This document shows, piece after piece, positions 5,346 through 32,699 of a stretch of DNA of 34,482 nt. Below the pieces are notes generated by a model that made no database searches, was not told where the DNA came from, and saw nothing but the letters and a program-made list of their open reading frames with translations. The stretch is taken from the sequence record DRR723986_5559; one strand, given 5' to 3'. Position numbers and translations under genes: made by a program. How positions within the stretch are numbered: the stretch's first letter is position 1; each line of letters opens with the position of its first letter.

Positions 5346-5349
5346 TCGA

Positions 5350-8963: not shown

Positions 8964-8994
8964 ACTGATAAGGAAAATCCGGCCCTGAAATCAG

Positions 8995-9020: not shown

Positions 9021-9050
9021 ATGTGGCCTGCGGCCATGTTTTGGAGAAAA

Positions 9051-9205: not shown

Positions 9206-9554
9206 CTGATAGCATAGAATTCCAAGATTAGGAGCCCAAACGAAAAGCCTTGCCTATTTCATAGTCTCAGATCAACCAGTTCTGTGTTTAGGTGGTGTCT
9301 CAGTTTGAATCTTCCGCTGCAGCTTGCGGCCGGAAAAGGCCTCAGGATTGCCGTTCGCAATGGGACCGGTGTGAGGCGGATATTCGCCGGAAGGTGCCGG
9401 TCACAACTGATTGCCGATTCCGGTCGTTCGATGTTCTGCGGTATCATTGTAAATCGGCGTCAAATTGGGACCCCTGCACCTCTAGCAAAATCAACTGGAT
9501 ATTGCGGCGATCGGCGTCGGTTCACCGCGCTGATTTACATGCATTCATACAGTG

Positions 9555-9732
9555 TGACCTGATATCCATTTGGTCCCGCATTTGAATGGAGAGCCTGTCG
9601 CAACGGAGACAGACAATGCGCAAAAGCAAATTCACCAGGGAACAGATCATCGCGACCCTGGCTGAAGAGGAAAGAGGCATGGCAGCCGCAGACGCGTGCC
9701 AGCGTCATGGTGTCAGCTCGGCTAACTTCTAT
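9555..9732 (+). mobile_element. IS3-family (IS407 group) remnant: left IR and first ~39 codons of orfA
   Basis: TGACCTG… end, GGAG RBS, ATG 9616: MRKSKFTREQIIATLAEEERGMAAADACQRHGVSSANFY. Similarity stops where KWK is expected. Confidence 0.8.
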
Positions 9733-9799
9733 ATCTATGGACGGCTCTCCCGGTGCAAGCGATTTGAGTCCTGATCGAACGGGTGTTCGATGCCAACAT

Positions 9800-10152
9800 C
9801 TACTGGCAACGCCCCGCAACGTGACAGCATCGCCTGGTGCCCAGACACATGCCCTTGCGGTTCTCCACCATCCGGACATGCTTGCGCCGGGCGGCATGGC
9901 GAAGGGCCTGGACGACCTTGAAGACGACCGAATTGCGCAGCGTGGCATCCGTCGCGTCAAGTCGGCGCTCGATCATCACCCGCTCAGCGAGATCCCGGGT
10001 TGTGAGTTCGCCATCGACCTCAAGATGGCGCACACAGATATCGGTGAACAGCCGGATCGACGCATTTATATGAGCCAGGTCTTGCTTCGCCTGCGCGATC
10101 TGAGCCTGGTACGCCGTGATCCGCCCGTGGATCTCGGCGCGCTTGTCCTTCA
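9800..10152 (-). pseudogene. Remnant of a conserved alphaproteobacterial hypothetical gene
   Basis: KDKRAEIHGRITAYQAQIAQAKQDLAHINASIRLF…ELTTRDLAERVM…VVQALR. The 5' end is replaced by the hydrolase 3' end, and there is an apparent frameshift at ATGTGTCTGG (~9845). Family recognition is from memory. Confidence 0.5.
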
Positions 10153-11142
10153 CGCACACCTTGGGTGTGCCTGCGCCTCCCAAAGGGAGAGAATGCTTCT
10201 GAGCGCAGTTAAAAAAGCTAATGGCTGATCGAGCATCAAATGGTGGCGCGCCTCAGGTACGGCGATTATCGGAATGTCACCGCCCCCTAGCTCGCGGATG
10301 TAGTCAGCCGAGTCCCTGGTGAAGAGCTGACTCTTTCCGCCATGAACGATGATCTTGCGGCCCGGCGCATTCACGAGTCGATGGCCGATTGTGAGCCATT
10401 CGTCGGACTTATTGCTTCGTCGGAATACCTCGGGTGAGAACTTCCATGTCCAACCGTCTCCGTCGCGTCGCATTGAATGATACGCCATGTAATCTAGGAG
10501 GAACGGCTCGCCGACTTGCTGGGGCGGGGAAAGGACGTATCTTTTGCGCGCCTCTTCATAGCTCGCATAGAGCCGGTTGGGCTTGTCAGGATCACCTGAT
10601 CCCGGGCTGGAGCGGCGATGGTTCCAGTATTGCTCTAGGAGCTCGGCTCGCATGACCATCAGATCGCAAATCACGACGCCGGAGAAAGCATCGGGCGACA
10701 GGGTCACGGCTGTCAGCGCTGCGCCCGCGCCGAAACTGTGCGCGATGATGGTGGGTTTGTGGCCATCTGTAAACAGATCGAGTGCCTCGGCAATCTCACC
10801 AAACTCGCCCCCCCTTGCCGCGGGATCGGCTTGCCCGCGCATCTCCGTGTCGCCCATGCCGGCGAGATCGAACGCCACCACGTCGTAATCTTCTGCGAGA
10901 AACGGAGCGATGAAGGCAAAGCAACGGGCGTGGGAGAGAAAGCCATGTGTCATAAGCACTTTCGGCTTTTTCCGGTCGCCCCAGCGGAAGTAGTGCGTCC
11001 TGGCACCGTCGATCTCAACATAACCTTCTTCGCGCGGCACCTTGAGGGCCGACACAAACCATTCCGGCAGATGCGAACCATCGCCGGCCCAGACAGGGTC
11101 GATGTCGTCGGGAAAATCTCCAATCTTGGACAATACGTTCAT
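10150..11142 (-). CDS. Alpha/beta-fold hydrolase (esterase/lactonase-like)
   Basis: HGF oxyanion motif, FDLAGMG, AHSFG nucleophile elbow, ARHHLMLDQP catalytic His region. Confidence 0.88.
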   Translation of the reverse strand: MNVLSKIGDFPDDIDPVWAGDGSHLPEWFVSALKVPREEGYVEIDGARTHYFRWGDRKKPKVLMTHGFLSHARCFAFIAPFLAEDYDVVAFDLAGMGDTEMRGQADPAARGGEFGEIAEALDLFTDGHKPTIIAHSFGAGAALTAVTLSPDAFSGVVICDLMVMRAELLEQYWNHRRSSPGSGDPDKPNRLYASYEEARKRYVLSPPQQVGEPFLLDYMAYHSMRRDGDGWTWKFSPEVFRRSNKSDEWLTIGHRLVNAPGRKIIVHGGKSQLFTRDSADYIRELGGGDIPIIAVPEARHHLMLDQPLAFLTALRSILSLWEAQAHPRCA

Positions 11143-12776
11143 TTCGTTAAGTGTTCCTTGCTAGTGGGTTTGTCGATCACGAAGCCGCGATACCCCTCGT
11201 TCGCTACATCTTCGCAGAGTGCGACATAGCCAGACACGCTTGGAAAATTGATCAGTTGACGCGTCTTGCCCGGGATGTTTGCGCCCATGTACCAAGAATC
11301 CGCTTCGGGAAAGAGCGTCATCGCGCCTGCTTGGGCAACCATTTCGGTCCAGCCCGTTTCAGCTGCCGGATCGGCTTCGAAAAGATCGACACCATTTTCC
11401 CGCATCCAGACCAGAAAGTCGCAGATCCAGTCACCCTGTATCTCTGCGCTGGTCGGGCCGTTTGAGAAACCCGACGGGCTGAGTGGCCCGTATGTGAACA
11501 GCATATTGGGAAAGCCAGACACCGCCATTCCCAGATAGGCGCGTACTCTGTCTTCCCACGCATGGGACAGTGATAGGCTGTTCGTCCCCCTGATGTTCAT
11601 ATCGATCAGCCCGCCGCGCCCGGCATCGAAGCCGGTGGCGAAAACGATGAGGTCGCATTCCATCTCGCCGTCTTTGGTCGTAATAGCGTGCGGTCCGATC
11701 CGGATGATCGGAGTTGCCTTGAGATCGACCAGCGCGACATTGTCTTGCGCGAAAATTTCGTAATATCCCTGTTCAAGCGAAGGCCGCTTCGTGCCGAATG
11801 GATGCGGCGGTTCGGATGGGGCGAGTTTCTCGGCCAGATTGGGATCGGCGATCCTTGCGCGAACCTTGCCGCGCCAGAAATCATAGGCGTGGCGGTTGGC
11901 TTCGCGGTTGGTAAGCAAGTCAGCGAAGTTGTGATACCAGAACCTGAGGCCGCCCTGTTGCCACAGATCTTCAAAGTGCGCGGTGCGCGCTTTCTCGTCA
12001 ACTTCGAGCGCCGATACGTCTAGCGATTGGCATTCGAACCCTCCGCTCGTCTGCTTGCGCGTTTCGAAGATCGCGGCATAGCCCTTCTTGTCCCGTTCCT
12101 GGTCTTCTGCCGAAAGCTTCTTCTGCTGCATAGGCAGCGCCAGGATGGGAGTTCTTTGAAAGAGGGTCAGCTTCGATACGGATTTGGCCGCTTCTTGCGC
12201 GACCTGCACACCACTTGCACCGGTGCCGATCAAGGCAACCTTACGTCCGCTGAGATCGACACCCTGCTGCGGCCAGCGCGCCGTGTGAAACCATTGGCCT
12301 TCGAAATCCTCAAGGCCGGGAAAATTGGGGACATACGGCTTTGATGCGAAACCAAGAGCGGGCAACAGGAACCGTGTCGAAACAGTTTTGTCGCTGTCGA
12401 GTTGCAGACGCCATTGCTTCGTCTCCTTCTCATAGTGCGCGCCTTTGACCCCAGACCCCATGCGCATCATGGGCCAAAGGTCGAGCGTATCGCAAACATG
12501 CCGGAAATACGCTCTGAGCTCTTCCCAACCGGGAAATCGCTCGCTCCAGGCCCATGACTTCCACACTTCAGGTATAGAGTACTCGTAAAGCGGAACCTGT
12601 GAATCCACTCGTGCACCTGGATAGCAATTCCAGTACCAGATGCCGCCGGGCTGGGCCGCAGCATCCACCAGCAACACGTTGAACCCGGCGTCACGCAACT
12701 TGTGGAGCAGGTATATCCCGCTGAAGCCGGCACCGACGATTACAACGTCGTAATCGGGAGACCCCCGATGGCTCAC
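11139..12776 (-). CDS. Type I Baeyer-Villiger monooxygenase
   Basis: GAGFSG, GGIWYWNCYPGARVD, BVMO fingerprint FEGQWFHTARWP, GTGASG, SWYMGANIPGK. True start is probably GTG 12776 (GTGA overlap with the upstream stop). Confidence 0.93.
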   Translation of the reverse strand: MSHRGSPDYDVVIVGAGFSGIYLLHKLRDAGFNVLLVDAAAQPGGIWYWNCYPGARVDSQVPLYEYSIPEVWKSWAWSERFPGWEELRAYFRHVCDTLDLWPMMRMGSGVKGAHYEKETKQWRLQLDSDKTVSTRFLLPALGFASKPYVPNFPGLEDFEGQWFHTARWPQQGVDLSGRKVALIGTGASGVQVAQEAAKSVSKLTLFQRTPILALPMQQKKLSAEDQERDKKGYAAIFETRKQTSGGFECQSLDVSALEVDEKARTAHFEDLWQQGGLRFWYHNFADLLTNREANRHAYDFWRGKVRARIADPNLAEKLAPSEPPHPFGTKRPSLEQGYYEIFAQDNVALVDLKATPIIRIGPHAITTKDGEMECDLIVFATGFDAGRGGLIDMNIRGTNSLSLSHAWEDRVRAYLGMAVSGFPNMLFTYGPLSPSGFSNGPTSAEIQGDWICDFLVWMRENGVDLFEADPAAETGWTEMVAQAGAMTLFPEADSWYMGANIPGKTRQLINFPSVSGYVALCEDVANEGYRGFVIDKPTSKEHLTK

Positions 12777-14386
12777 GATGCGACCGTCAAACGTTCGGCG
12801 ATTGCTTTCGCCGTTGCATAGTCGGCCTTGCCGTTGGATGCACGCAGGGGTTTTTCCGTCGGATGTATGGCCTTGGGCGTTTTGTATCCCGCCAGCTGAT
12901 CGCGCACATGGTCCTTGACAGCTTGCTCGTCGAACGGGACGCCGTGGTTGAGGTGGACGACGGCCGTGACGGCCTGGCCCCATTTTTCATCCGTTACACC
13001 TACGACCAGCGCGTCACCGATGGCAGGATGGGTCTTGAGCACTTCCTCGACTTCTTCTGGGTATACCTTCTCGCCAGCAGTGTTGATGCATACGCTGCCG
13101 CGGCCTAGCAGGGTAAGGCTTCCATCGGCCTCTACCCGGCACCAGTCACCCGGAATCGAATAACGCACGCCATCGATTGTGCGGAATGTCTTGGCGGATT
13201 TTTCGGGATCTTTGTAATATCCCATGGGGATGGCCCCCTTGCGGGCGATAAAGCCAGGCACGCCGCTTCCTGGTTCGACTTTCTGATCGTTTTCGTCGAA
13301 GACATCGCAGAATTCGCCAATCCCGAATTTCGCGGTGTTCGTACCGCCCTGTGCAGTCGTGACGGAGAGGCCGAAGCCGAGCCCTTCGGAGGCGCCGAAA
13401 CTATCCATCAGCACGACCTGGGGAATGTGCTTGCATAGACCGGCCTTAATCTCCTTGCTCCACATCACGCCGGACGAGATGATGGAGACGAGGCTCCTGG
13501 TATCCCAGCGGCCCGCGTTTTCTTCGAGCGCGCGAAGCATTGGCTTAGCAAAGGCGTCGCCCACAATTGCGATGCTTTCCACCTGGTGCTTTTCGACCGT
13601 TTCCCACAATTCTGACGCTTCGAAGGAAGGGGCCGTCAGCGTGATGATCGCGCCGCCCGACATTAGCGCACCTATCGCGGTGATGAAGCCCGTCCCGTGC
13701 ATGAGCGGGCAGGCGGAGAGAGTGCGCCTGCCGGGCCCCTCTTTCTCGATCAGCGCAACATTTTCTTCCAGCGTCCGCGGAACCGGGCCCAATAACTTCT
13801 GGGCGTCCAGCTGGGCCTTGCGCATGTCGTCGTGCCGCCACATCACGCCTTTCGGCATCCCGGTCGTGCCGCCGGTATAGATGAAGAGCAAATCGTCGGG
13901 TGAGCGTTCGATGCCGAGCGCCGATCCGTCCCCTTTTCCCGCCAGCGTCTCATAGGGACTCGCAAAAGACGCGATTTCGGAAGGGTCGCCAATTTCGACG
14001 AAAGTGTGAACCTTCTCGAGCCTATCCTTGAGTTCGACGATGCATTCGCGAAACTCCGAACTGTAAACAATCACTTCGCTGTCAGAATCTTGGAAAATGT
14101 AGAAAACTTCTTCGGCGCGATAGCGGTAATTGATGTTCACATGGGTCAAGCGCCCCTTAAAACAAGCCGCCATCAGCTCGCCATATTCGGGGCGGTTGCG
14201 CATGTAGAAGGCCACCTTGGCACCATCGCACGCTCCGCGTTGACGCAACGCGCGCGCGATATTATTCGAGCGCGCGGACATTTCGGGCCAAGTGACGATC
14301 CGGTCGCCGTGTATCAGCGCCGGAGCGTCCTGAGGCATGGCGGGCTCGACTGCATCGAGAATGTCACCGAGGTTCCAGTCGATCAT
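12773..14386 (-). CDS. Acyl-CoA synthetase (FadD19-like)
   Basis: YTGGTTGMPKG AMP-binding motif, PLMHGTG, GYYKDPEK, GEKVYPEEVE, LAGYKTPK. Confidence 0.92.
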   Translation of the reverse strand: MIDWNLGDILDAVEPAMPQDAPALIHGDRIVTWPEMSARSNNIARALRQRGACDGAKVAFYMRNRPEYGELMAACFKGRLTHVNINYRYRAEEVFYIFQDSDSEVIVYSSEFRECIVELKDRLEKVHTFVEIGDPSEIASFASPYETLAGKGDGSALGIERSPDDLLFIYTGGTTGMPKGVMWRHDDMRKAQLDAQKLLGPVPRTLEENVALIEKEGPGRRTLSACPLMHGTGFITAIGALMSGGAIITLTAPSFEASELWETVEKHQVESIAIVGDAFAKPMLRALEENAGRWDTRSLVSIISSGVMWSKEIKAGLCKHIPQVVLMDSFGASEGLGFGLSVTTAQGGTNTAKFGIGEFCDVFDENDQKVEPGSGVPGFIARKGAIPMGYYKDPEKSAKTFRTIDGVRYSIPGDWCRVEADGSLTLLGRGSVCINTAGEKVYPEEVEEVLKTHPAIGDALVVGVTDEKWGQAVTAVVHLNHGVPFDEQAVKDHVRDQLAGYKTPKAIHPTEKPLRASNGKADYATAKAIAERLTVAS

Positions 14387-14443
14387 TTTCCCTCTCCCTG
14401 CCGGACGGGGCAGCCAGTCTCGGACGCCCCCTCAACGAGTGTG

Positions 14444-15535
14444 TTACGCGGCCTTGATCCAGCCTTGCAGTGCTGCCGCCTCGGCCCGCACCGTTTCGGG
14501 TCCGCCAAGCACCTGCCGGTCGAATTCAATGCGTTTGAACCAGTAGTGCAGACCGATCAGGTCCGTGAATCCCATCCCGCCATGCACTTCGGTGGAAGTG
14601 CGGGCGACAAAGCGATGGACTTCGCCGGTGTGTGATTTCGCGTGGCAGGCGACGAGCGATGCCTCTGTCGGAACTGCGTCAAAGGCGTGGGCGGCGTACC
14701 AGACGAGCGAACGGCATGGTTCATGCCGCGCGGCCATCTCGGCGCACATGTGCTTTACGGCCTGGAAACTGCCGATAAGGCGACCAAACTGTTCGCGCTG
14801 GCCAGCATAATCGACAGCCTTTTCGATCATGGCCTGACCTGCGCCAAGACTGTCGGCGGCGAGGATCACACGCCCCGCAGCGCGCAGCCGGGCCACTGTA
14901 GCTCCCCCATCATCAGCCAGTGGTTCCGCTTCGGCCCCGTCAAACCGCAATTCCCCGACGCTGCGGGTCCGATCGATGGTCGTCAGCGCGATAGCCTTCA
15001 GGCCCGACGCCTTGGCACCGACAAGGTGCAGCCTGCCGCCGGAATCGGCGACGATGAAGGCATCGGCCCCTTCGAAATCGAGTGCGAACAGGGCGGTGCC
15101 GTTGAGCTTCCCGGCAGCAGAGGAAACCCCCGCGCCGTCGCGTACCTCGATTGTCTCGGAAATCGCGACACCGATACGCGCCTCGCCGCTCGCGATCTTT
15201 GGCAGCCAGTGGGCCTTTTGCTCCTCGCTGCCTGCCTCGCTCAGCGCGATAGGCGTCAGAACATGACTGGCGAGAAAAGGTACTGGCGCGACCGCATAGG
15301 CGAGCTGTTCCGCAACTATGGCAGCGTCGAGAAGGGTCATGCCGAGGCCGCCATGCTCTTCCGGTACCAGCATCCCGGGAATTCCCAGGTCCTGGACGGC
15401 GCGGAGCACTTTGTCGCTAAGCGGATTGTCACGCTCGGCACATTCGCGGACATGATCGAGCGGGCAGGTATCCGCAAGACACCGCGCAACGGCATCGCGC
15501 AGCATCCGCTGGTCCTGAGAAAGTCCGAAATCCAT
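14444..15535 (-). CDS. Acyl-CoA dehydrogenase, short (beta-type) subunit
   Basis: 363 aa; REQFGRLIGSFQAVKH, EVHGGMGF; adjacent to a longer ACAD. Confidence 0.9.
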   Translation of the reverse strand: MDFGLSQDQRMLRDAVARCLADTCPLDHVRECAERDNPLSDKVLRAVQDLGIPGMLVPEEHGGLGMTLLDAAIVAEQLAYAVAPVPFLASHVLTPIALSEAGSEEQKAHWLPKIASGEARIGVAISETIEVRDGAGVSSAAGKLNGTALFALDFEGADAFIVADSGGRLHLVGAKASGLKAIALTTIDRTRSVGELRFDGAEAEPLADDGGATVARLRAAGRVILAADSLGAGQAMIEKAVDYAGQREQFGRLIGSFQAVKHMCAEMAARHEPCRSLVWYAAHAFDAVPTEASLVACHAKSHTGEVHRFVARTSTEVHGGMGFTDLIGLHYWFKRIEFDRQVLGGPETVRAEAAALQGWIKAA

Positions 15536-16785
15536 TAGGCTGATCCCTGTTTGTGACGCGGCATGTCTGCGGTTGCTTTCGCCGCATCCGAAATCTTCGC
15601 CAGCTTCGGTTCGCGCGGCATTTCGAGGCCACGTTCAGCGATGATGTTCTTCTGGATCTGCGCGGTGCCGCCGCCAATGATGAGACCGAGCTGGAACATA
15701 TAGTTCCATTGCCACGCCCCCCCTTCCCGCTCACGCGGGCTGTGGTGATAGAGAATGCCCAGTTCGCCCATGGCGTCGATTGCCAGCGCGGATATCTGAT
15801 GAGCGAGTTCGCAGCTTTGCAACTTGACGATCAGTTTCGCCATGCCGCCCGGCTCACCCCTAAGGCTGTTCGAAAGGATCCGCATCCCATTGCATTTCAT
15901 CGCTGCCACTTCGGCCTGCAGTGCCACCAGCCGGTCGCGCAGTACCGGGTTGTCGATCGCGCGACCCTGGCCCAAACGCTCTTCCTGCATCAGCGCGATC
16001 AGTGCCTGCAGCCGGTTTTCAAGCGCGTCGGGATCGCCCAGCATTCCGCGCTCATGGCCAAGAGTTGCGTTCGCCACGAACCAGCCCTGGCCCCGCTGGC
16101 CGACGATCTGATGCATGGGGACCCGGACATCGGTAAAGAACACTTCGTTGAATTCGGCATGACCGGTCATCGTCTTCAAGGGGCGAACCTCGATGCCCGG
16201 CGTGTCCATCGAAAAGATCAGGTAGGAAATGCCGCCATGCTTGGGCGCGTCAGGTTCGGTCCTGACCAAGCAGAAGATCATGTCGGCCTGCTTGGCGGTG
16301 CTGGTCCAAATCTTCTGGCCATTGACAACAAATTCGTCGTTCTCGATGTGCGCGCTGGTCTTGAGATTGGCGAGGTCCGACCCGGCACCGGGTTCGGAAT
16401 AGCCCTGGCACCAGACAACATCGCCTTTCAACGTGGGTTCGATCCAGCGCCGTTTCTGTTCCTCGGTGCCGAGTTCGAGCAGAGTCGGCACGAACATCGA
16501 GATTCCCTGATTGGAAAGTCCGCCCGGCACCCTGGCCCGCGCAAATTCCTCTGCGATGATGCGCGATTGGAGAATGTCCGGCTCCGCTCCATAGCCGCCA
16601 TACGCCTGCGGGATCGTTCGAGCGGTATACCCATGCTCGATCAACAGCTTCTGCCATTCGACCGCCTTGGACGAAGGTCGGGCCGCCCGGTCAGAAGAAG
16701 GCGGAGCAAGATGGCTGTGCGCTTCGATAAAGGCCCGCACCTGCTTGCGGAAGACATCGTATTCGGGTCCATATTCGAGATCCAT
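15535..16785 (-). CDS. Acyl-CoA dehydrogenase, catalytic (alpha-type) subunit
   Basis: WCQGYSEPGAGSDLA, NGQKIWTS, FNEVFFTDV, LGHER, GGGTAQIQKNIIAER. Start at ATG 16785. Confidence 0.92.
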   Translation of the reverse strand: MDLEYGPEYDVFRKQVRAFIEAHSHLAPPSSDRAARPSSKAVEWQKLLIEHGYTARTIPQAYGGYGAEPDILQSRIIAEEFARARVPGGLSNQGISMFVPTLLELGTEEQKRRWIEPTLKGDVVWCQGYSEPGAGSDLANLKTSAHIENDEFVVNGQKIWTSTAKQADMIFCLVRTEPDAPKHGGISYLIFSMDTPGIEVRPLKTMTGHAEFNEVFFTDVRVPMHQIVGQRGQGWFVANATLGHERGMLGDPDALENRLQALIALMQEERLGQGRAIDNPVLRDRLVALQAEVAAMKCNGMRILSNSLRGEPGGMAKLIVKLQSCELAHQISALAIDAMGELGILYHHSPREREGGAWQWNYMFQLGLIIGGGTAQIQKNIIAERGLEMPREPKLAKISDAAKATADMPRHKQGSA

Positions 16786-16792
16786 GGCGCTT

Positions 16793-17254
16793 CTAACTTT
16801 CACTCAGGCGGAAAACAGGAAGGCGGAAGTCCTCACCGATCAGTTCGAACTCCACGACCACCGGAAGGTCGAGCGCAAGACGCTCGTGATCGCAACCAAC
16901 CAGCCGCGTGGCCATGCGCACCCCCTCTTCCAATTCAACCACCGCAGCCACGAAGGGGATGTCGGCGGCAAAAGCCGGGTGGAGGGCCTGGTGGGTTACG
17001 GTCCAGGAAAACAACGTGCCCCTGCCGCTGCTGCGTTCCCAGGAAAATTCCGGCGAGCCGCACTTTGCGCACATATAGCGCGGCAAGTGGCGGAAGCTGC
17101 CGCAATCGCCGCAGCGCTGGAAATAGAGATGGCCGTCCTGGCACCTCTTCCAGAATTCCTGCTCAACCGGGTCTTGTGGGCGCGGTCGCGGCTTGGGTGG
17201 CACCATCTGCGCGGAAGGCCGCATTTTGGGGGGCAGATCGCTTTCGCTGCTCAT
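16793..17254 (-). CDS. DUF35 Zn-ribbon/OB-fold protein (ChsH2 C-terminal-like)
   Basis: FW…QRCGDCG…[10 protein letters not shown]…GRGTLFSWT…VELEEG. ATG 17254 overlaps the thiolase-fold gene stop (ATGA). Confidence 0.9.
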
Positions 17255-18441
17255 GCAAACCTCCTGAGAATGGCGATGCTGCCGTCGCCGAGGTCGCCCC
17301 AACCGGTCACGAGGCCGGTCTGGGCTCCCGGCACCTGGCGCTCGCCGCAGTCGTGACGAAGCTGACGCACTGCCTCGACCACGTGGTTGAGGCCCCAGAC
17401 ATGCGCCTCACTGAGCAAGCCGCCATGGGTGTTGATCGGAAAGCGGCCACCCAGCTCAATCTGGCCGTTGGCGACGAATTCGGCCTGTCCGCCTGGTTCG
17501 CAATACCCCATCGCTTCCAGTTGCAGCAAGACGACATAGGTAAAGCAATCGTAGATCTGCAGGAAATCCATGTCCTCGCGCTTGACGCCAGCCATATCGA
17601 AAGCGCGCGGGGCGGCATAGCTAAGGCCGATCTTGAAGGGATCGGGCCGTGACGGGATGTCGTCGGCAGGATAGGGGTGGCCTTCCGCGGCACCGGCGAT
17701 GCTGACAGGCACATGGGGCATATCCCTGGCCCGATCCATTCGCGATATGACAACCGCGCAGGCCCCATCGGTTTCAAGGCAGCAATCGTAAAGGCGGAAG
17801 GGCTCGGATATCCAGCGCGCTGAATGATAGGCTTCCGCGTCGAGTGCGCGCCCATAGGTAAAGGCGCGCGGATTCAACTGCGCGTGACGACGGCAGGCCA
17901 GCGCGACGGCCGCCATCGCATCCGCGCCCACACCGTAAAGCTTCGAGTGGCGGGTCGCCAGCCAAGCATACATCTGCACCGGCAGGAACACACCATAGGG
18001 GATGTAATAGCCCTGGATGGTATTGGTCAGCGTGTTCATGTTCATCGCCCGAGTGGGCGGGGCACCCGGCTTGGACCTGAGGGCGGAGTAGCCGTTCCAA
18101 CCGAGCGTGACCAGCACGTGATCGCAAAGCCCGCTGGCAATCGCCATCGCAGCGTTCTGCAGCGCCGTCGTCGGGCTGGCGCCACCCATGTGAACGGTGG
18201 CCGCATAACGCAGCACATCAATGCCGAGATTGGCGGCCATTTCCTCCGAGGTCGTATAAATCGGCGGCGGCACCATGCCGTCGATATCGGAAGGTTTCAG
18301 GCCGGCATCCGCGATGGCGCGGCGCGAGGCTTCCAGCATCATGTCCACTGCAGTCCGTTCCGTGCCCTTCACGAATACGGTTTCGCCCACACCGGTTATG
18401 GCGGCCTTGTCGGCAAAGGCAAAGGTCTGTGAAGCGTTCAT
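17251..18441 (-). CDS. Thiolase-fold SCP-x/Ltp2-like protein (probable retro-aldolase)
   Basis: [13 protein letters not shown] in place of the thiolase nucleophilic Cys, [34 protein letters not shown]. Confidence 0.85.
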
Positions 18442-18465
18442 ACCGCGTCCCCGTCTTGCCGGAAT

Positions 18466-19608
18466 TCAGGAATAGAATCTGGCATCAGCCAGCGCCCTTT
18501 CGGCCCCGTCGACAAGATCGCGCATGACCTCTGCCGCTGGACGGATCGAATGGATCAGACCGATTCCCTGCCCCGCGAAGCCGGGCATGATATCCTTGCG
18601 CTGAGCCTTGATGCCCGAAGCCATGACCGGCCCTGAAATCATCGACTGGTAAGGCATGGGAAGCGGCTCCTTGCCCGCCGCAACCCAGGCATCGGCCCAT
18701 TTGCTGCGGATCATGCGCGCGGGCTTGCCGGTCATCGAGCGGCTGACGATGGTATCTGCATCGCCGCTTTCGGTGATTGCTTCCTTCTGAAACCGTTCGA
18801 TGCCGGCTTCATCGGTTGCCAGGAACGCCGTTCCGACCCACGCGCCCACAGCGCCCAGCATCATCGCCGCAGCGACTCCGCGGCCATCGGAGATTCCACC
18901 CGCTCCGATCACCGGAACCCGGTCCCCCACCGCATCGACCACTTGTGGAATCAGCGAGAAGGTTCCGATCGGGGAGTTGTGTCCGCCGCCATCGTGACCT
19001 TGCGCAACAATCATGTCGATACCGGAATCGACCACCTGTTGGGCATGTTTGACCTTGCCGATCACCGCCATGACCTTGGTGCCATTCGAATGAAGGCGGT
19101 CCATCCACGGTCCGGGATTGCCGAGGCCGGCGGCATAGACTGGCACCTTTTCCTCGATTACAACTTCCATCTGCGCCTCGAAAAACTCCCGCGAGAACAA
19201 CTGCGGCCCGCCCTTGCCCATTTCCGGCGCGCCAGCCGCGCGCATGGCCATTGCGGCATCCACTTCGGGCAGATCCTCGCGTTCCATGAAATCGCGGGTG
19301 AACTGCTGGTATTCGCCAAGCAATGCCATCGGGTTTTCGGGCACGGCGCCGCTTTGCGGGGCCGAACCGCGCCTGACGGAGGCAGGCAGAAGGGTATCGA
19401 CCCCAAACGGTTTGTCGGTCAGCTCGCGGGTCTGGCGGATCCAGCTACGCAACTGGTCCGGCGAGCAGGCCGCAGCGCCAAGAACGCCAAGCCCCCCCGC
19501 ATTCGATACTGCAGCCGCGAGCGCGGGGACACTGGCCCCGCCCATCCCGGCCAGAAGGATCGGGTACTCGATCCCGAGAATTTCGCAAATGTGGCTCTTG
19601 AGTGCCAT
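18466..19608 (-). CDS. Nitronate monooxygenase/FabK-like FMN-dependent oxidoreductase
   Basis: LGIEYPILLAGMG, AVSNAGGLG, AQGHDGGGH, AGGISDGRG, GTAFLAT. GGAGAAGG RBS precedes ATG 19608. Confidence 0.88.
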   Translation of the reverse strand: MALKSHICEILGIEYPILLAGMGGASVPALAAAVSNAGGLGVLGAAACSPDQLRSWIRQTRELTDKPFGVDTLLPASVRRGSAPQSGAVPENPMALLGEYQQFTRDFMEREDLPEVDAAMAMRAAGAPEMGKGGPQLFSREFFEAQMEVVIEEKVPVYAAGLGNPGPWMDRLHSNGTKVMAVIGKVKHAQQVVDSGIDMIVAQGHDGGGHNSPIGTFSLIPQVVDAVGDRVPVIGAGGISDGRGVAAAMMLGAVGAWVGTAFLATDEAGIERFQKEAITESGDADTIVSRSMTGKPARMIRSKWADAWVAAGKEPLPMPYQSMISGPVMASGIKAQRKDIMPGFAGQGIGLIHSIRPAAEVMRDLVDGAERALADARFYS

Positions 19609-19653
19609 CGTGTTACCTTCTCCAAATTGCGCCATCCACGGGCGCCTGTTATT

Positions 19654-20394
19654 TTACATCTGCCCCCACTTGACCTTCTGGGACACAAGCTCAGGGCTTC
19701 TTTCTGCGAGATAGGAGGCGGAGCCCGCCACGAGACGAGCCATCGCCTGCCGCGCTCCTTCGGCATCGCCCTTGCGCACAGCTTCAAGGACGCGGCGCAA
19801 GAAGCGCAACTGGACCGCACGCTCTTGCGCCGAATACCCCAGCGAGAGCGAAAATTCGCGGGTAAGCATGTGCAACGCGGAAGTCAGAAGGCCGAAAAGC
19901 GGATTGCCGCTGGCCCAGCCGAGCATATCGTGAAAACGGCGATTCAGTTCCTCGAACTGGCTACTGGCTTCGTTGCGCTCCAGCTCTTTGAGGCAATCGG
20001 CAAGTGCGCTCAGATCACCCGTGGTCGCGCGCTGGGCGGCATAGGCTGCAACATTCGGAGCTATGGCTTCGCGCAGTTCGAGCAGGCCTCTGAGGTCTGC
20101 TTCCATGAATTGCAGGATTAGAGAAAGATTATTCGCAAAATCACCGGTCTGCGGGCGGGCGACCACCGGGCCGCCACTACGGCCCAGTTGAAGATGGATT
20201 ACGCCCTGAAGCTCAAGGAAGCGGAGCGCTTCGCGCAAAGTCGCTCGAGCGACATCGTATCGCGCAAGCATTTCGTCCTCGCGCGCCAACCTGTCGCCCA
20301 CAACATGCGCCCCGGCTTCGATATCGCGTACGATGTCTTGCGCAAGCGTGAGCGCACGCTTGGCTTTCTTGGAATCATCGACCTTCGGTTGCAT
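19654..20394 (-). CDS. GntR/FadR-family transcriptional regulator
   Basis: wHTH (GDRLAREDEMLARYDVARATLREALRFLE) plus FCD domain (LLELREAI, NRRFHDML, ASGNPL). Confidence 0.92.
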   Translation of the reverse strand: MQPKVDDSKKAKRALTLAQDIVRDIEAGAHVVGDRLAREDEMLARYDVARATLREALRFLELQGVIHLQLGRSGGPVVARPQTGDFANNLSLILQFMEADLRGLLELREAIAPNVAAYAAQRATTGDLSALADCLKELERNEASSQFEELNRRFHDMLGWASGNPLFGLLTSALHMLTREFSLSLGYSAQERAVQLRFLRRVLEAVRKGDAEGARQAMARLVAGSASYLAERSPELVSQKVKWGQM

Positions 20395-20413
20395 CTCCAG
20401 GAATCGCTCCTCT

Positions 20414-20513
20414 GATAATTCCTTATAAGGGTTTATCGGCAGATATGTCTAGAGCGCTCATAAGCAATTCACAGTTTGACCGGATTTTACAATAATCCTT
20501 ATAAGCTTTATTG
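20414..20513. promoter_or_regulatory. Divergent promoter with two palindromic operator candidates
   Basis: GATAA-TTC-CTTATAAG-GGT-TTATC (20414-20437) and CAATAA-TC-CTTATAAG-CT-TTATTG (20490-20513). TTGACC(20476)-N18-TATAAG(20500) overlaps the second. Confidence 0.7.
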
Positions 20514-20584
20514 ACTACGGCCTGCAAATTCCCTACCTATCCGCAAACGAGGTGAGTCTGCTTGCTAGGCATGGAGGACAAGAC

Positions 20585-21847
20585 ATGAGCATCGACACGA
20601 TGGAGCTGGATACTGCCGAAAAAATCGCGGCCATGCCGATCGACGAAATCGATGTCTCTCGGCCGAGCCTTTTTCAGCAGGATACGATCGGCCTGTTCTT
20701 CGACCGGCTGCGCAAGGAGGAGCCAGTCCATTACTGCCGTGAAAGCCATGTCGGACCCTTCTGGTCGATCACCAAATTCGACGACATCATGGCCGTCGAT
20801 ACCAACCACAAAGTCTTTTCATCGGAGGCAAAGCTCGGCGGTATCGCCATCCAGGACATGCATAGTGCGGAAGGTGCGCTCGAACTTGAAATGTTCATCG
20901 CCATGGATCCTCCAAAGCACGACCAGCAACGCAAGGCCGTCACCCCCGCTGTGGCGCCGTCCAACTTGCTGTTGCTCGAACCGACAATCCGCGAACGAGC
21001 GTGTCAGATTCTCGATGATCTACCGATCGGCGAGGAATTTGATTGGGTTGACAAGGTCTCGATCGAATTGACCACGATGACCCTTGCCACCCTGTTCGAT
21101 TTTCCGTGGGAAGAACGCCGCAAGCTCACCCGCTGGTCCGATGTCACAACCGCTGCTCCTGAAACCGGCATCGTCGCATCGTACGAAGCGAGGCGCGAAG
21201 AGCTCATCGAGTGCGCGATGTATTTCAAGGGCCTGTGGGATCAGCGCGTCAATGAGCCGCCAAGGAACGACCTGATTTCCATAATGGCGCATGCCCCGGC
21301 GACAAAGGATATGCCTTTCCTCGAATTTCTGGGTAACCTCCTGCTGCTGATCGTGGGCGGCAACGACACCACGCGCAATTCAATCAGCGGCGGTGTGCTC
21401 GCCCTCAATCAGAACCCCGACGAATATCGCAAACTGAATGACGACCCATCGTTGATCACCAGCATGGTGCCGGAAATCATCCGCTGGCAGACGCCGCTGA
21501 CTCACATGCGCCGCACCGCGCTTCAGGAATGGGAGATCGGCGGCAAACAGATCAAGAAGGGCGACAAGGTCGTGATGTGGTACCTGTCGGGCAACCGCGA
21601 CGACACGGTTATCGACCAGGCCGACCGGTTCATCATTGACCGCAAGAATCCGCGCCATCACCTGTCATTCGGCTATGGCATCCATCGCTGCATGGGCAAC
21701 AGGCTGGCAGAACTGCAGTTGCGGATCATCTGGGAAGAGATTCACAAGCGCTTCGCCAAGGTCGAAGTGACCGGCCAACCCGAGCGCCTGTATTCAACCC
21801 TTGTGCGCGGGATCACCAAGCTGCCGGTGCGGCTGCACGCCCGCTGA
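20585..21847 (+). CDS. Cytochrome P450, CYP153 family (alkane terminal hydroxylase-like)
   Basis: MFIAMDPPKHDQQR, NLLLLIVGGNDTTRNS, EIIRWQTPL, HLSFGYGIHRCMGNRLAE. GGAGG RBS precedes ATG 20585. Confidence 0.93.
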   Translation: MSIDTMELDTAEKIAAMPIDEIDVSRPSLFQQDTIGLFFDRLRKEEPVHYCRESHVGPFWSITKFDDIMAVDTNHKVFSSEAKLGGIAIQDMHSAEGALELEMFIAMDPPKHDQQRKAVTPAVAPSNLLLLEPTIRERACQILDDLPIGEEFDWVDKVSIELTTMTLATLFDFPWEERRKLTRWSDVTTAAPETGIVASYEARREELIECAMYFKGLWDQRVNEPPRNDLISIMAHAPATKDMPFLEFLGNLLLLIVGGNDTTRNSISGGVLALNQNPDEYRKLNDDPSLITSMVPEIIRWQTPLTHMRRTALQEWEIGGKQIKKGDKVVMWYLSGNRDDTVIDQADRFIIDRKNPRHHLSFGYGIHRCMGNRLAELQLRIIWEEIHKRFAKVEVTGQPERLYSTLVRGITKLPVRLHAR

Positions 21848-21873
21848 TTTACCAAAGCAGAAATACGGAGTTT

Positions 21874-22203
21874 ATGATGGTCAAAGTGACGTTCGTATCC
21901 AGCGATGGAACGCGGCGGGAAGTCGAAATTGCTGAGGGCGAAACAGCGCGCGAAGCGGCGCTTTTCAACGGCGTGCCGGGCATCGACGGCGATTGCGGCG
22001 GGGCCTGCGCCTGTGCGACCTGTCATGTCCATGTCGACCCGACCTGGATCGACAAGGTGGGTCGTCTGAAGGAAGGCGAAGCGGAGGCCGAACTCCTCCA
22101 ATTTGCAGAAGGGGCCAGCGAATACAGTCGCCTCGCCTGCCAGATACCCATGGAAGCTGCGATGGAAGGTTTGGTTTTGCACGTTCCTGCGCAGCAGTAC
22201 TGA
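21874..22203 (+). CDS. [2Fe-2S] ferredoxin (putidaredoxin/adrenodoxin type)
   Basis: CGGACACATCHV…SRLACQI. Confidence 0.93.
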   Translation: MMVKVTFVSSDGTRREVEIAEGETAREAALFNGVPGIDGDCGGACACATCHVHVDPTWIDKVGRLKEGEAEAELLQFAEGASEYSRLACQIPMEAAMEGLVLHVPAQQY

Positions 22204-22270
22204 CCAGCCAGAGCGCGGCCTTGTCGTCCGAGTGGGGTGCCACGAATTTGATTTTTGAACGGAGGTTTCC

Positions 22271-23482
22271 ATGCCGACACAAGTAGAATCCGATGTCCAG
22301 ACGAGCGAAGACGCATTTCGCACCGAAGTGCGGCAATTCCTCGCCACCAATTTCCCTGACGAACTCAAGGGCACGGGCAATATGATGGCCGGGCTCGACG
22401 GTCCGACCGACGAGAACCCTGTCCAGAAGAAATGGCGAGAAGCCGTGGGCGGGCGTGGTTGGGGCACGCCAACCTGGCCCAAGGAATATGGCGGGGGCGG
22501 ACTGACCAAAGGCCAGGCCAGAATCATCGAGCATGAGTTCGCCAAGGTCGGCGCCTACAATCCGATCGGCGGAATGGGTGTGATGATGTTCGGCCCGACC
22601 CTGCTCGAATACGGCGACGAAAGGCAGAAGCTGGAGCATATCCCGCCAATCTGCCGTGGCGAAATTCGCTGGTGCCAGGGCTACTCGGAGCCGAATGCCG
22701 GATCAGACCTCGCAAACCTGCAGACCTTCGCGGTCGACAAGGGCGATCACTACCTCATTAACGGCCAGAAGACCTGGACCAGCGGTGGCCAGTGGGCTGA
22801 CAAGTGCTTTGCCATCGTCCGCACCGACCGGTCAGACAAACACAAAGGTATCAGCTTCATGCTGATCGACATGGACGCACCAGGCGTTGAAGTCCGCCCG
22901 ATCACAATGATCAGCGGAACCAGCCCGTTCTGCGAGACCTTCTTCACCGATGTGAAGGTGCCGAAGGAAAATCTCGTGGGCAAGGAAGGCCAGGGCTGGA
23001 CTATCGGCAAGCGCCTGCTTCAGCACGAGCGCACGAACATTTCGGGCGGAGGGCGCCTCGCCGGCATGATGGGCCAGAGCCTTGGCGATATCGCCAAGAA
23101 GTACTGCGAAACCGGCGGTGATGGCGCGCTCGTCAACAAGGTCCTGCGCGACAAGATCGCCGATCTTGAGATCCGCTGGAACAGCTTCCTGCTCACCGCG
23201 CGTCGTGCGGTCGAGGAAAGCAAAGCGCAAGGCGGCGTTTCGGAGATCAGTTCGGTTCTGAAAAAGGTCGGCACCAAGTTGGCCCAGGACCGCAGCGAGT
23301 TGCTGATCGAAATCCGCGGCTTTCAGGGCCTCGGCTGGGAAGGCGACGAGTTTGGCGATGACGAACTTGAGGATGTGCGCGGCTGGCTCTTCGGCAAGGC
23401 AGCGACGATCTATGGCGGTTCGACCGAAGTCCAGAACAACATCATTGCCAAGCGGGTGCTTGGCATGCTCGACCACCAGTAA
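22271..23482 (+). CDS. Acyl-CoA dehydrogenase, catalytic (alpha-type, PimC-like) subunit
   Basis: WCQGYSEPNAGSDLA, NGQKTWTS, LLQHER, IYGGSTEVQNNIIAKR. Confidence 0.92.
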   Translation: MPTQVESDVQTSEDAFRTEVRQFLATNFPDELKGTGNMMAGLDGPTDENPVQKKWREAVGGRGWGTPTWPKEYGGGGLTKGQARIIEHEFAKVGAYNPIGGMGVMMFGPTLLEYGDERQKLEHIPPICRGEIRWCQGYSEPNAGSDLANLQTFAVDKGDHYLINGQKTWTSGGQWADKCFAIVRTDRSDKHKGISFMLIDMDAPGVEVRPITMISGTSPFCETFFTDVKVPKENLVGKEGQGWTIGKRLLQHERTNISGGGRLAGMMGQSLGDIAKKYCETGGDGALVNKVLRDKIADLEIRWNSFLLTARRAVEESKAQGGVSEISSVLKKVGTKLAQDRSELLIEIRGFQGLGWEGDEFGDDELEDVRGWLFGKAATIYGGSTEVQNNIIAKRVLGMLDHQ

Positions 23483-23500
23483 GCGAGGGTAGCAAGGACA

Positions 23501-24571
23501 ATGGCAGTTCTCAGCGAAGAACAGGAAATGCTGCGCAACATGGCGCGCGACTGGGCGACCAAGGAAAGCCCGGTATCCGAGTTCCGCAAAGTCCGCGCAG
23601 CAGGCCAACCGCAGGCCTACAACGCTGACGCCTATGCCGCGATGGCCGAAATGGGCTGGGTCGGGATCATCATTCCCGAGGCCCATGGTGGATCAGATTT
23701 CGGTTTCTTGTCGGCCGGCCTCGTGATCGAGGAACTCGGCAAAACGCTGACCGCAAGTCCGCTGGTGGCCACAACCATCGCGGCGAGCGCAATCCTGCTC
23801 GGCGGAAGCGACGCGCAGAAGGCCAAATGGCTTCCCAGGCTCGCCAGCGGCGAAACCGTGGCAACGCTGGCTGTCGATGAAGGAGCGCATTGCGATCCCT
23901 CCGCAATCGAGACCAGCGTTTCGGGCGGCAAGCTGACCGGCAAAAAGGCATTCGTGCACGAGGCGCATGGCGCCAGCCTCTTCGTGGTCGCAGCCAAGGA
24001 CGGCCTATACCTGGTCGAAAAGGGCGATGGCGTTTCACTGACCACGCGCAAGCTCACCGATCAGCGCAGCCACGCCGATATCCAATTCGCTGGCGCTGCC
24101 GCCGAGAAGCTCGAGGGCGGAGGCGACAGTCTGCTTGGCGACGTGCTCGACCGGGCGCGCGTGCTTTCCGCTGCCGAAATGCTCGGCATGGCGCAAGCTG
24201 TGTTCGACACGACCCTCGACTATCTGAAGCAGCGTGTGCAGTTCAATCAGGTGCTTGCTACTTTCCAGGCGCTGCAACATCGCATGGCGGATCTGTTCGC
24301 CGACCTCACGCAGATGCGCTCCGCGGTCGAGGCGGGTTTACAGGCAGTCGACAGCGGTTTCGGAGTCGCGCGTGCAGCGACCATCGCCAAGGCCGAGGCA
24401 AATCGCGTACTGCACGCGATCAGCAATCAGGGTATCCAGCTGCATGGCGGCATCGGGATGACCGACGAATTCAATGTCGGCTTCTACCTCAAGCGTGCTC
24501 GCGTGCTCGAGGCGAGTTGGGGGTCGTCAAGCTACCTCAGGGACCGTTTTGCACGATTGTCCGGTTACTGA
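23501..24571 (+). CDS. Acyl-CoA dehydrogenase, short (beta-type, PimD-like) subunit
   Basis: 356 aa; RVQFNQVLATFQALQHR, IQLHGGIGMTDE. Confidence 0.9.
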   Translation: MAVLSEEQEMLRNMARDWATKESPVSEFRKVRAAGQPQAYNADAYAAMAEMGWVGIIIPEAHGGSDFGFLSAGLVIEELGKTLTASPLVATTIAASAILLGGSDAQKAKWLPRLASGETVATLAVDEGAHCDPSAIETSVSGGKLTGKKAFVHEAHGASLFVVAAKDGLYLVEKGDGVSLTTRKLTDQRSHADIQFAGAAAEKLEGGGDSLLGDVLDRARVLSAAEMLGMAQAVFDTTLDYLKQRVQFNQVLATFQALQHRMADLFADLTQMRSAVEAGLQAVDSGFGVARAATIAKAEANRVLHAISNQGIQLHGGIGMTDEFNVGFYLKRARVLEASWGSSSYLRDRFARLSGY

Positions 24572-24604
24572 CGACGAAGGTTTCTCGCCACTCACAGCTT
24601 GCCG

Positions 24605-32695: not shown

Positions 32696-32699
32696 GGGA

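Follow-up and report, generated by a model that had tools for sequence, protein, structure and literature searches.

Gene content and layout of the locus

The 34,482-nucleotide stretch of DNA in sequence record DRR723986_5559 (called the window below, always at its full length) holds a cluster of 13 genes whose two arms diverge from a short control region (Table 1). Reading down from position 20394, the minus arm encodes a GntR/FCD regulator, an enzyme with likeness to FabK-type enoyl-ACP reductases and to nitronate monooxygenases (NMO), a thiolase-fold protein, a DUF35 protein, the large and small subunits of an acyl-CoA dehydrogenase (ACAD), an acyl-CoA synthetase (ligase), a monooxygenase of the Baeyer-Villiger type (BVMO) and a serine hydrolase. 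The plus arm, from position 20552, encodes a CYP153A-type cytochrome P450, a 2Fe-2S ferredoxin and a second large/small ACAD pair. Searches against Pfam, NCBIfam and the sequences of the Protein Data Bank (PDB) recovered, in place, every gene that a first-pass annotation of this DNA had named, and brought out one that it had missed, the FabK/NMO-like gene. These are known kinds of enzyme in a new combination, and the module is mobile and widespread.

Several junctions had been described as translationally coupled, and four start/stop overlaps bear this out: GTGA between ligase and BVMO, ATGA between BVMO and hydrolase, ATGA between the thiolase-fold and DUF35 genes, and TAATG between the large and small ACAD genes. 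The overlaps that chain ligase, BVMO and hydrolase tie ketone oxidation to CoA chemistry. The true start of the BVMO gene is the GTG at 12776 and not the upstream ATG of a 614-aa open reading frame (ORF).

Table 1. Features of the cluster and of the mobile block that contains it.
Feature	Position	Strand	Basis or remark
Mobile block, whole cluster plus NUDIX gene	9390-25693		Empty-site contig, megablast limits, GC
IS3-family transposase OrfA remnant, 62 aa	9586-9774	+	Pfam HTH_Tnp_1, E 9e-8
Whole cluster, 13 genes	10150-24571	two divergent arms	Pfam and NCBIfam
Alpha/beta-fold serine hydrolase	10150-11142	-	Pfam Abhydrolase_6/1, AHSFG serine elbow
Type I BVMO, 545 aa	11139-12776	-	PDB matches, fingerprint motifs
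AMP-forming acyl-CoA synthetase	12773-14386	-	Pfam AMP-binding and AMP-binding_C; NCBIfam PRK07798
ACAD small subunit, pair 1	14444-15535	-	Pfam hits confined to the N- and C-terminal domains
ACAD large subunit, pair 1	15535-16803	-	All three ACAD Pfam domains; start GTG 16803 or ATG 16785
Stand-alone DUF35 protein, 153 aa (zinc ribbon and OB fold)	16793-17254	-	Pfam zf-ChsH2 and OB_ChsH2_C
Thiolase-fold protein	17251-18441	-	Pfam Thiolase_C_1; PDB match Ltp2 6ok1
FabK/NMO-like flavin mononucleotide (FMN) enzyme	18466-19635	-	Pfam NMO, E 1e-71
GntR/FCD (FadR-type) regulator, first gene of minus-strand operon	19654-20394	-	Pfam GntR and FCD
Divergent control region, 157 bp	20395-20551		Between GntR and CYP153A genes
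CYP153A-type P450	20552-21847	+	PDB match 3rwl, motifs
2Fe-2S ferredoxin	21874-22203	+	Pfam Fer2
Second ACAD pair, large subunit	22271-23482	+	Pfam; accessory
Second ACAD pair, small subunit	23501-24571	+	Pfam; accessory
NUDIX hydrolase	24605-25432	-	Pfam NUDIX; inside near-identical block, travels along
TraG/VirD4 coupling protein, cut by window end	32700-34481		Beside a weak ribbon-helix-helix protein (32306-34481 region)

A predicted aldolase-type site in the thiolase-fold protein

The thiolase-fold and DUF35 proteins had been annotated as an 'Ltp2-like/DUF35 pair', a name that the comparison with solved structures upholds. The best PDB match of the thiolase-fold protein is the aldolase Ltp2 (6ok1, E 4e-71; compare 9myr, E 5e-48), and its gene adjoins that of the DUF35 protein. 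In pairwise alignment with the true thiolases 7yvy and 6hsj, Gly87 falls on the nucleophilic Cys, and the motif Y297-D-C299-F lies opposite HDCF in SCP2 thiolases and YDHF in Ltp2, Y297 corresponding to Tyr294 of Ltp2. According to passages of a study of such enzymes (PMC12329534), Ltp2 uses the Tyr of YDHF as catalytic base and Tyr344 as catalytic acid, the bile-acid aldolase Sal (motif YDCY) uses the Tyr as base and the Cys as acid, and a Gly at the nucleophile position precludes thiolysis. With Gly87 in place of the nucleophilic Cys, the protein is therefore not expected to act as a thiolase, and its residues point to an active site of the aldolase type rather than the thiolase type. Cys299 matches the acid Cys of Sal, and the catalytic set thus appears to be that of Sal/SLP on a sequence that is nearer to Ltp2 overall by the two E values given above. 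When the query is aligned with its 120 best homologues, each at least 64% identical, all 121 sequences have Gly87 and YDCF, and all except one (120 of 121) keep His347, which takes the position of Ltp2 Tyr344.

Akin to Ltp2-ChsH2 of Thermomonospora and Mycobacterium and to Sal-Shy of Comamonas, the pair combines a thiolase fold, Gly for Cys, the Tyr of a YDxF/Y motif and a predicted DUF35 zinc-ribbon partner (here with the Cys4 motif CxxC-x10-CxxC) with neighbouring heteromeric ACADs. It differs from them in that its DUF35 protein is free-standing, where that of ChsH2 and Shy forms the C-terminus of a MaoC hydratase, in having His347 where Ltp2 has Tyr344 and Sal has Gln352, and in its context, which is CYP153, BVMO and esterase and not a steroid regulon. 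The thiolase-fold family is large (of 8,000 proteins scored, at least 7,747 reach E 1e-30 or better), and its members bear generic or wrong names, such as 'transporter' or 'acetyl-CoA acetyltransferase'.

A 37%-identical paralogue of the thiolase-fold protein, with a DUF35 protein of its own and at least five ligase genes, lies on contig C102 of the nearest genome (G001). That genome has 33 acyl-CoA-synthetase-like matches, and C102 is a second, different CoA-dependent catabolic region.

The accompanying enzymes

The P450 matches CYP153A7 (3rwl) with an E value of 4e-187 over residues 25-430, about two-thirds of them identical by eye; by the rule of P450 nomenclature, more than 40% identity places proteins in one family and more than 55% in one subfamily. 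Its top PDB matches are chains titled CYP153 or alkane hydroxylase, 13 CYP153-type chains outrank those of CYP125 and CYP124, and the CYP125 matches lie at about 1e-50 to 1e-79. It has the haem loop FGYGIHRCMG at residue 373 and a GGNDT I-helix (LLIVGGNDTTRNS, around 269), CYP153-type enzymes being known by the I-helix motif GGNDTTRN. From these matches we assign it to the CYP153 family, as a CYP153A. As in the canonical CYP153 operon (AraC, ferredoxin, CYP153, ferredoxin reductase), a 2Fe-2S ferredoxin gene is adjacent. The departure from that operon to which the first-pass annotation had drawn attention is real: the window has neither reductase nor AraC, control appears to lie with a GntR/FCD protein, and the P450 is linked to CoA-dependent and Baeyer-Villiger genes. 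The sole Pyr_redox_2 protein of the window, a flavoprotein encoded at 2588-3856, was considered as the ferredoxin reductase and rejected, its best model being sulfide:quinone reductase (SQR; 90 bits against a cut-off of 525).

The BVMO is of type I by its motifs, which comprise the fingerprint FxGxxxHxxxW[P/D] (FEGQWFHTARWP, residue 158), two Rossmann motifs (GAGFSG at 15 and GTGASG at 184) and GGxWxxxxYPGxxxD (GGIWYWNCYPGARVD, residue 44). Its best PDB match is 6jdk (E 3e-208), which we take to be a chain from P. lavamentivorans, followed by PAMO, CHMO and STMO at 1e-105 to 1e-131. An excerpt of the genome paper on P. lavamentivorans DS-1 reports no growth on cyclohexanone, cycloalkanes and several terpenoids, a result that we set aside as evidence here. 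The serine hydrolase, a candidate esterase or lactonase that would act after the BVMO, had no PDB sequence match at E 1e-8, and its AlphaFold2 model (10-sequence alignment, predicted local distance difference test score 65) matches generic esterases and thioesterases. The acyl-CoA synthetase, labelled FadD19-like in the first-pass annotation, scored 692 bits against NCBIfam PRK07798 (cut-off 543), a subfamily to which FadD19 presumably belongs, and 155 bits against the steroid-24-oyl-CoA synthetase model (cut-off 750); it had no PDB sequence match at E 1e-40.

For the ACADs, the earlier description as heteromeric agrees with the PDB results, in which the large and small proteins of pair 1 find different counterparts within two solved steroid heterotetramers, ChsE4-ChsE5 and Tcur3483-Tcur3481. 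The best PDB matches of the large subunit of pair 1 are ChsE4 (4x28_A, E 3e-46) and Tcur3483 (6wy8_B), and Tcur3481 (6wy8_A) and ChsE5 (4x28_D) are among the four best of its small partner; the small subunits have no Pfam hit for the middle domain. By these matches pair 1 is classed as a predicted heteromeric ACAD of the ChsE type. The FabK/NMO-like enzyme is nearer to FabK-type enoyl-ACP reductase chains (PDB matches at 2e-57 to 4e-44) than to nitronate monooxygenases (1e-35 or weaker); it scores 246 bits against TIGR03151, below the cut-off of 453, and in the ESM Atlas it falls in NMO-family clusters only. It is probably an enoyl-thioester reductase.

The recurrence of steroid enzymes among the closest solved relatives (Ltp2, ChsE4/ChsE5, Tcur3481/3483) raises the possibility of a side-chain module for sterols, bile acids or hopanoids, in which a CYP125-like P450, ChsE-like ACADs and an Ltp2-like aldolase would lead to release of a 17-ketosteroid, and BVMO and hydrolase would open ring D. 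CYP125 and CYP124 are indeed the next P450 families after CYP153, a steroid monooxygenase is among the BVMO matches, and one related locus (L076) has Rieske, KstD-like and old yellow enzyme (OYE)-like genes nearby. We nonetheless consider such a role quite improbable, because the P450 is a CYP153 by a wide difference in E value and not a CYP125, because KshA_C was found in none of three carrier genomes (99-100% complete; a weak point, as 14 control genomes gave no positive), and because steroid-like neighbours occur in one of 17 neighbour-mapped loci (16 of them Pfam-scanned). The stand-alone form of the DUF35 protein also speaks against it.

The control region and RNA libraries

Two copies of the palindrome-bearing word TCCTTATAAG lie in the control region (20420-20429 and 20496-20505, 76 bp apart), the second of them abutting a TTGAC -35-like box. 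With at most one mismatch the word has five matches, against 0.28 expected by chance, and both boxes are kept in an alignment of 15 diverged loci; they are plausible as a putative GntR operator pair.

Near-identical sequence is present in 19 runs from 10 studies, 11 of the runs being on record as RNA, and the RNA libraries with the cluster are from seawater, estuary and plastic-associated samples. In four runs filed as metatranscriptomes, from four studies, contigs span both arms (28-30 of 30 bins). Among the contigs listed, two end at 20402 (run X1, followed by adapter) and 20404 (run X8), and others restart at 20527 (X8) and 20644 (X1); such ends and restarts inside the divergent control region are a hint of two divergent transcripts. 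Contig depth in run X4, a quantity that cannot rank genes, is higher on the P450 arm.

Conservation among close relatives

The first-pass annotation had put forward a synteny search as a check on the cluster, and the genes do occur together elsewhere. A scan of species genomes (one genome per species) yielded 507 relatives of the thiolase-fold protein, of which the best 80 (87-100% identical) were kept; counts for close relatives refer to the 68 loci of at least 15 kb among them. Of these 68 loci, 60 have the complete set of 11 core genes in one order, an arrangement far beyond chance; six of the others lack the ferredoxin only and two lack edge genes only. Identity of the BVMO and hydrolase falls to 61-64% among these loci, which shows that the gene order outlived considerable divergence. 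By record title the carriers are Sphingomonadales and Hyphomonadaceae, plus single metagenome-assembled genomes of other groups, and the cluster lies on two named plasmids. Croceicoccus naphthovorans PQ-2, Sphingopyxis fribergensis Kp5.2 and Henriciella mobilis are among the isolates that bear it. Its distribution is patchy: five of 401 sampled genomes across the phylum, and one of three in the genus of the nearest genome, had a match at E 1e-80 or better.

Other genes accompany the core less regularly. Orthologues of the second ACAD pair (at least 70% identity) were found in 27-28 of the 68 loci and a NUDIX gene in 26. A Coq4-family gene lies between the thiolase-fold and NMO genes in 35 loci (Pfam E 1e-20 to 1e-23; for example L026:9201-10004, L043:8967-10004 and L067:9249-10004) and is absent from the window, and a UbiB/ABC1-like gene is nearby in 18. 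The Coq4 and UbiB families, known from isoprenoid-quinone biosynthesis, put ubiquinone-biosynthesis-type proteins inside a catabolic operon.

Rearranged relatives in metagenomes

Partners of the pair also recur farther afield. A scan of metagenome contigs with the gammaproteobacterial homologue P0064 gave 43 loci of at least 14 kb, with thiolase-fold proteins 52-89% identical to that of the window, and homologues were counted within 8 kb of the thiolase-fold gene. DUF35 adjoins the thiolase-fold gene in all 43. A hydratase of either type is encoded in 32 loci (MaoC as a separate gene in 18, ECH_1 in 17), an NMO-like gene in 27, a large ACAD in 25, a ligase in 21, a BVMO in 19, a Zn-dependent alcohol dehydrogenase (Zn-ADH) in 18 and a FadH-like OYE reductase in 14. 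The hydratase absent from the window is thus encoded in sister variants. A CMD/AhpD-family gene, for a protein like carboxymuconolactone decarboxylase, stands between the MaoC hydratase and Zn-ADH genes in 17 of the 43 loci (for instance L110:8091-8660, L128:8161-8736 and L090:7657-8154).

The order of these partners varies. In L093 a single strand reads ACAD small, ACAD large, MaoC, thiolase-fold, DUF35, BVMO. In L090 and in seven metagenome loci (L136, L139-142, L144 and L146), IclR-OYE-MaoC-CMD diverges from a series comprising Zn-ADH, thiolase-fold, DUF35, large and small ACAD, ligase and BVMO; L135 has a related form of this layout with no BVMO hit. L109-118 combine the thiolase-fold/DUF35 pair with MaoC, Zn-ADH and an OYE-like reductase and have no BVMO, an ACAD pair being present in seven of nine. 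L120-125, whose thiolase-fold proteins are 88-89% identical to that of the window, keep the whole minus arm and the GntR gene, with an ECH_1 homologue, 4HBT and NUDIX genes in place of the P450 and ferredoxin. The recurrence of the same partners in different orders is what a functional link predicts, and the cluster in the window may be one layout among those of a broader family that centres on a thiolase-fold/DUF35 retro-aldolase, a view for which the case in our judgement stands about even.

The L120-125 form bears directly on whether the two arms belong together at all. They could be functionally separate cargo that shares an island and a control region, the P450 being an ordinary alkane hydroxylase and the minus operon degrading an unrelated acid or ketone; besides the exchange seen in L120-125, this would account for the finding of a CYP153-like P450 in nine of the 43 distant loci only, for the loss of the ferredoxin in six of the 68 close loci and for the accessory nature of the second ACAD pair. 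Against such independence, two unrelated layouts link a CYP153-like gene to the BVMO operon, the divergent one of the window and one with the P450 on the same strand directly after the BVMO, as in L090 and in five of the seven metagenome loci of its type (L136, L139-142), and eight of the nine P450-bearing loci have a BVMO too. The arms of the window moreover share one 157-bp control region with two conserved palindromic boxes, and we regard separate arms as unlikely.

The same comparison speaks to ordinary n-alkane degradation, in which CYP153 would serve terminal and BVMO plus esterase sub-terminal oxidation, the CoA-dependent genes being generic helpers of beta-oxidation. CYP153A enzymes are alkane hydroxylases by family, sub-terminal routes through BVMO and esterase are widely proposed, and BVMOs induced by hexadecane are described in an excerpt of one report (PMC13609444). 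One plasmid also carries alkB, rubredoxin and aldehyde dehydrogenase genes about 7 kb from the cluster. What makes this reading very doubtful is that the thiolase-fold protein, with no nucleophilic Cys, should be unable to run the thiolytic step, and that ChsE-type heteromeric ACADs are, as a family, specialised for bulky acyl-CoAs. The ligase, BVMO and hydrolase genes are translationally coupled, and the BVMO gene lies directly beside the thiolase-fold/DUF35 pair in the P450-less loci L093, L128 and L155.

Adjacency to the BVMO likewise bears on what the aldolase releases. An enzyme acting like Sal on a secondary 3-hydroxyacyl-CoA would give an aldehyde and leave BVMO and hydrolase to another intermediate, a course consistent with an active site of the Sal/SLP type (YDCF with its Cys) and not of the Ltp2 type (YDHF plus Tyr344), and with the Zn-dependent alcohol dehydrogenases beside the pair in 18 of the 43 distant loci. 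Neither the cluster nor its scanned neighbours, however, include an aldehyde dehydrogenase, save in the unrelated alkB region of the one plasmid, and a ketone product best accounts for the BVMO gene that recurs beside the pair (19 of 43); release of an aldehyde seems distinctly improbable.

Mobility and flanking genes

The description of the cluster as island-borne is borne out by a shift in GC content, near-identical copies across families, an IS3 remnant, an empty-site contig and a TraG gene. GC, at 0.65-0.66 in the left flank, drops to 0.55-0.63 over the cluster, and megablast found 97-99% nucleotide identity to loci titled Henriciella or Hyphomonas from 9040 or 9539 to 25430, or on to 28441. 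Near-identical copies in different bacterial families indicate that the block is horizontally mobile. A 450-nt contig of RNA run X4 joins position 9389 to 25694 with 184 unrelated letters between them, a join that suggests a different organism in which the element's site is empty or holds other DNA. The TraG/VirD4 and ribbon-helix-helix genes at the right end are part of a conjugative backbone, and at other loci the cluster is flanked by integrases, transposases, a TrwC relaxase and TraG.

Outside the block, the left flank (601-8963) encodes an outer-membrane efflux protein, thioredoxin 2, the SQR-like flavoprotein, an HlyD adaptor, a resistance-nodulation-division (RND) pump and ArsR (8643-8963), the last followed by a terminator-like hairpin at 8992-9023; these genes have the look of an independent locus for efflux and for sulfide or metal stress. 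Within the near-identical block and immediately downstream of the hydrolase gene, a 127-aa coiled-coil-like ORF (9800-10183, minus strand) matched no family, its best Pfam hit (E 0.004) falling short of the cut-off. To the right (24605-31802) lie the NUDIX gene and genes for an RND pump and its adaptor, a hotdog thioesterase, a further alpha/beta hydrolase and MarR. Of these, the thioesterase, the hydrolase, MarR and an efflux system of some kind are found again next to the cluster in other genomes, in varying order, and these genes may handle dead-end acyl-CoAs or export toxic intermediates.

Proposed route and its substrates

The best reading of the locus, judged from its sequence and with a chance of being right that we would call even, is a horizontally mobile catabolic module under GntR/FCD control that joins omega-hydroxylation and activation to a CoA ester with retro-aldol cleavage to a ketone, Baeyer-Villiger oxidation and ester hydrolysis. 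We infer its reactions, their order and the kind of substrate as follows. CYP153A and its ferredoxin, with a reductase of the host, would hydroxylate a terminal methyl group of a hydrophobic substrate, and host dehydrogenases would convert the product to a carboxylic acid, which the acyl-CoA synthetase would turn into its CoA thioester. The ChsE-like heteromeric ACAD would then form a 2-enoyl-CoA at the carbon that bears a substituent (methyl, ring or aryl), and a hydratase, supplied here by the host and encoded in sister variants, would give the tertiary 3-hydroxyacyl-CoA. Retro-aldol cleavage by the Cys-less thiolase-fold/DUF35 complex would yield acetyl- or propionyl-CoA and a ketone, the BVMO would oxidise the ketone to an ester or lactone, and the serine hydrolase would split this, leaving an alcohol and an acid in the one case and a ring-opened hydroxy acid in the other. 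The FabK/NMO-like enzyme would probably reduce a C=C bond of a thioester intermediate.

The first-pass annotation had arrived at much the same pathway logic, and its support is partial: the aldolase-type site and the co-occurrence of the genes, rearranged forms included, argue for it, and the lack of a hydratase, the replaceable CYP153 arm, the accessory second ACAD pair and the overlooked NMO-like gene keep it a proposal. Several points weigh against the module as drawn here. Scans of the window genes against Pfam and NCBIfam gave no enoyl-CoA hydratase or 3-hydroxyacyl-CoA dehydrogenase, and family scans of the same genes gave no alcohol dehydrogenase, aldehyde dehydrogenase or ferredoxin reductase; nor did any of the 80 window-type genome loci have a MaoC, ECH, Zn-ADH or CMD homologue within 10 kb. 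The P450 arm is dispensable, being absent from the close variant L120-125 and CYP153-like in a minority of distant loci, the second ACAD pair is accessory, and the FabK/NMO-like enzyme has no necessary step in the route. Since the position of Ltp2 Tyr344 holds His347, retro-aldol chemistry would proceed by analogy to Sal and not to Ltp2, and as Sal yields an aldehyde from a secondary alcohol, a ketone product does not follow from an aldolase-type site alone. The hydrolase has a generic fold, and its model matches do not separate esterase from lactonase. The related loci, close and distant, are kin and not independent counts; the RNA-library contigs are a hint and no proof of transcription, its level or co-induction; and a description of the cluster was not found in the literature searched.

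As the earlier annotation had said, the sequence does not name the substrate: an alkyl-cycloalkane, an isoprenoid or another compound would all fit. Among the candidates are methyl-branched chains, isoprenoid ones included, as well as alkyl-cycloalkanes and sec-alkylbenzenes. The NMO-like enzyme and, in relatives, the FadH-like reductases suggest substrates with C=C bonds, and these two reductase types, the Coq4/UbiB-like accessory genes and the efflux, MarR and thioesterase neighbours lean towards unsaturated isoprenoid lipids or hydrocarbons, which were among the options first proposed. The core genes would suit alkyl-cycloalkanes, sec-alkylbenzenes and cyclic terpenes no less than isoprenoids.

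Relation to known systems and significance

In the Mycobacterium cholesterol igr-type operon the order is cyp125, fadE28-fadE29, chsH1-chsH2, ltp2. The cluster resembles it in placing a P450 omega-hydroxylase, a heteromeric ACAD and a predicted retro-aldolase in one locus, and in the logic of dehydrogenation, hydration and cleavage; it differs in having CYP153A, no hydratase, the added BVMO, hydrolase, ligase and NMO-like genes, a GntR regulator and a place on a mobile element in Alphaproteobacteria.

A biochemical parallel to the apparent sequence of steps (from CoA ester and tertiary hydroxyacyl-CoA through a lyase to a cyclic ketone, then BVMO and lactone hydrolase) is the pathway of Arthrobacter sp. 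CA1, in which, in work by Ougham and Trudgill from 1982, cyclohexylacetate is reportedly degraded via (1-hydroxycyclohexan-1-yl)acetyl-CoA lyase, cyclohexanone and cyclohexanone monooxygenase. To our knowledge that pathway is known only biochemically, with no genes assigned, and in the literature searched we found no gene assigned to a tertiary hydroxyacyl-CoA lyase. For cyclohexylacetate, an excerpt of one review mentions only an alpha/beta-oxidation route (PMC10710301).

Parts of the scheme are also met in the degradation of xenobiotics. In the linear alkylbenzenesulfonate pathway of C. testosteroni KF-1, as given in an excerpt of its description, 3-(4-sulfophenyl)butyrate is converted to 4-sulfoacetophenone, on which the BVMO SAPMO and then the esterase of the next gene act, the genes lying on mobile DNA (PMC3746432). 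Within that excerpt, the likeness extends to a beta-substituted acid from which a methyl ketone arises, the BVMO that follows, a neighbouring gene for the hydrolase and mobile DNA; the KF-1 route as described there has no P450, and its substrate is xenobiotic and aromatic. In the sphingomonad ibuprofen genes, IpfE is a DUF35 protein. The excerpted account of the plasmid-borne ipfABDEF has an 'ipfDE-encoded thiolase' free propionyl-CoA from a CoA-activated branched acid, with IpfF as the CoA ligase (PMC9195938). By that account, too, a plasmid-borne pair in Sphingomonadaceae takes an acyl-CoA unit off a CoA-activated branched acid, but the cleavage follows ring dioxygenation, and no ACAD, BVMO or P450 takes part.

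Isoprenoid lipids, together with hydrocarbons that are branched or alicyclic (pristane, phytane, alkylcyclohexanes, naphthenic acids), make up the slow, persistent fraction of oil and algal organic matter, and the genes for passing a substituted beta-carbon are poorly known beyond the Atu pathway and steroid catabolism. Here a large, unnamed aldolase-type family, repeatedly wired to hydratases, heteromeric ACADs and BVMOs, is packaged with CYP153 on mobile DNA. We suggest tentatively, and with less confidence than we place in the module itself, that this is a general bypass of the beta-block (hydrate, cleave by retro-aldol, oxidise by Baeyer-Villiger, hydrolyse) which spreads ready-made on conjugative elements and could allow many marine and soil Alphaproteobacteria, and the relatives seen in metagenomes, to break down isoprenoid hydrocarbons and lipids or alkyl-cycloalkanes by a course other than the carboxylase-dependent Atu route. 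In that event the thiolase-fold/DUF35 family, whose unnamed proteins number more than 7,700, would be a source of lyase genes for the cleavage of tertiary hydroxyacyl-CoAs. The cluster yields candidate genes and isolates for a testable pathway, and may offer a marker of the degradation of recalcitrant hydrocarbons.

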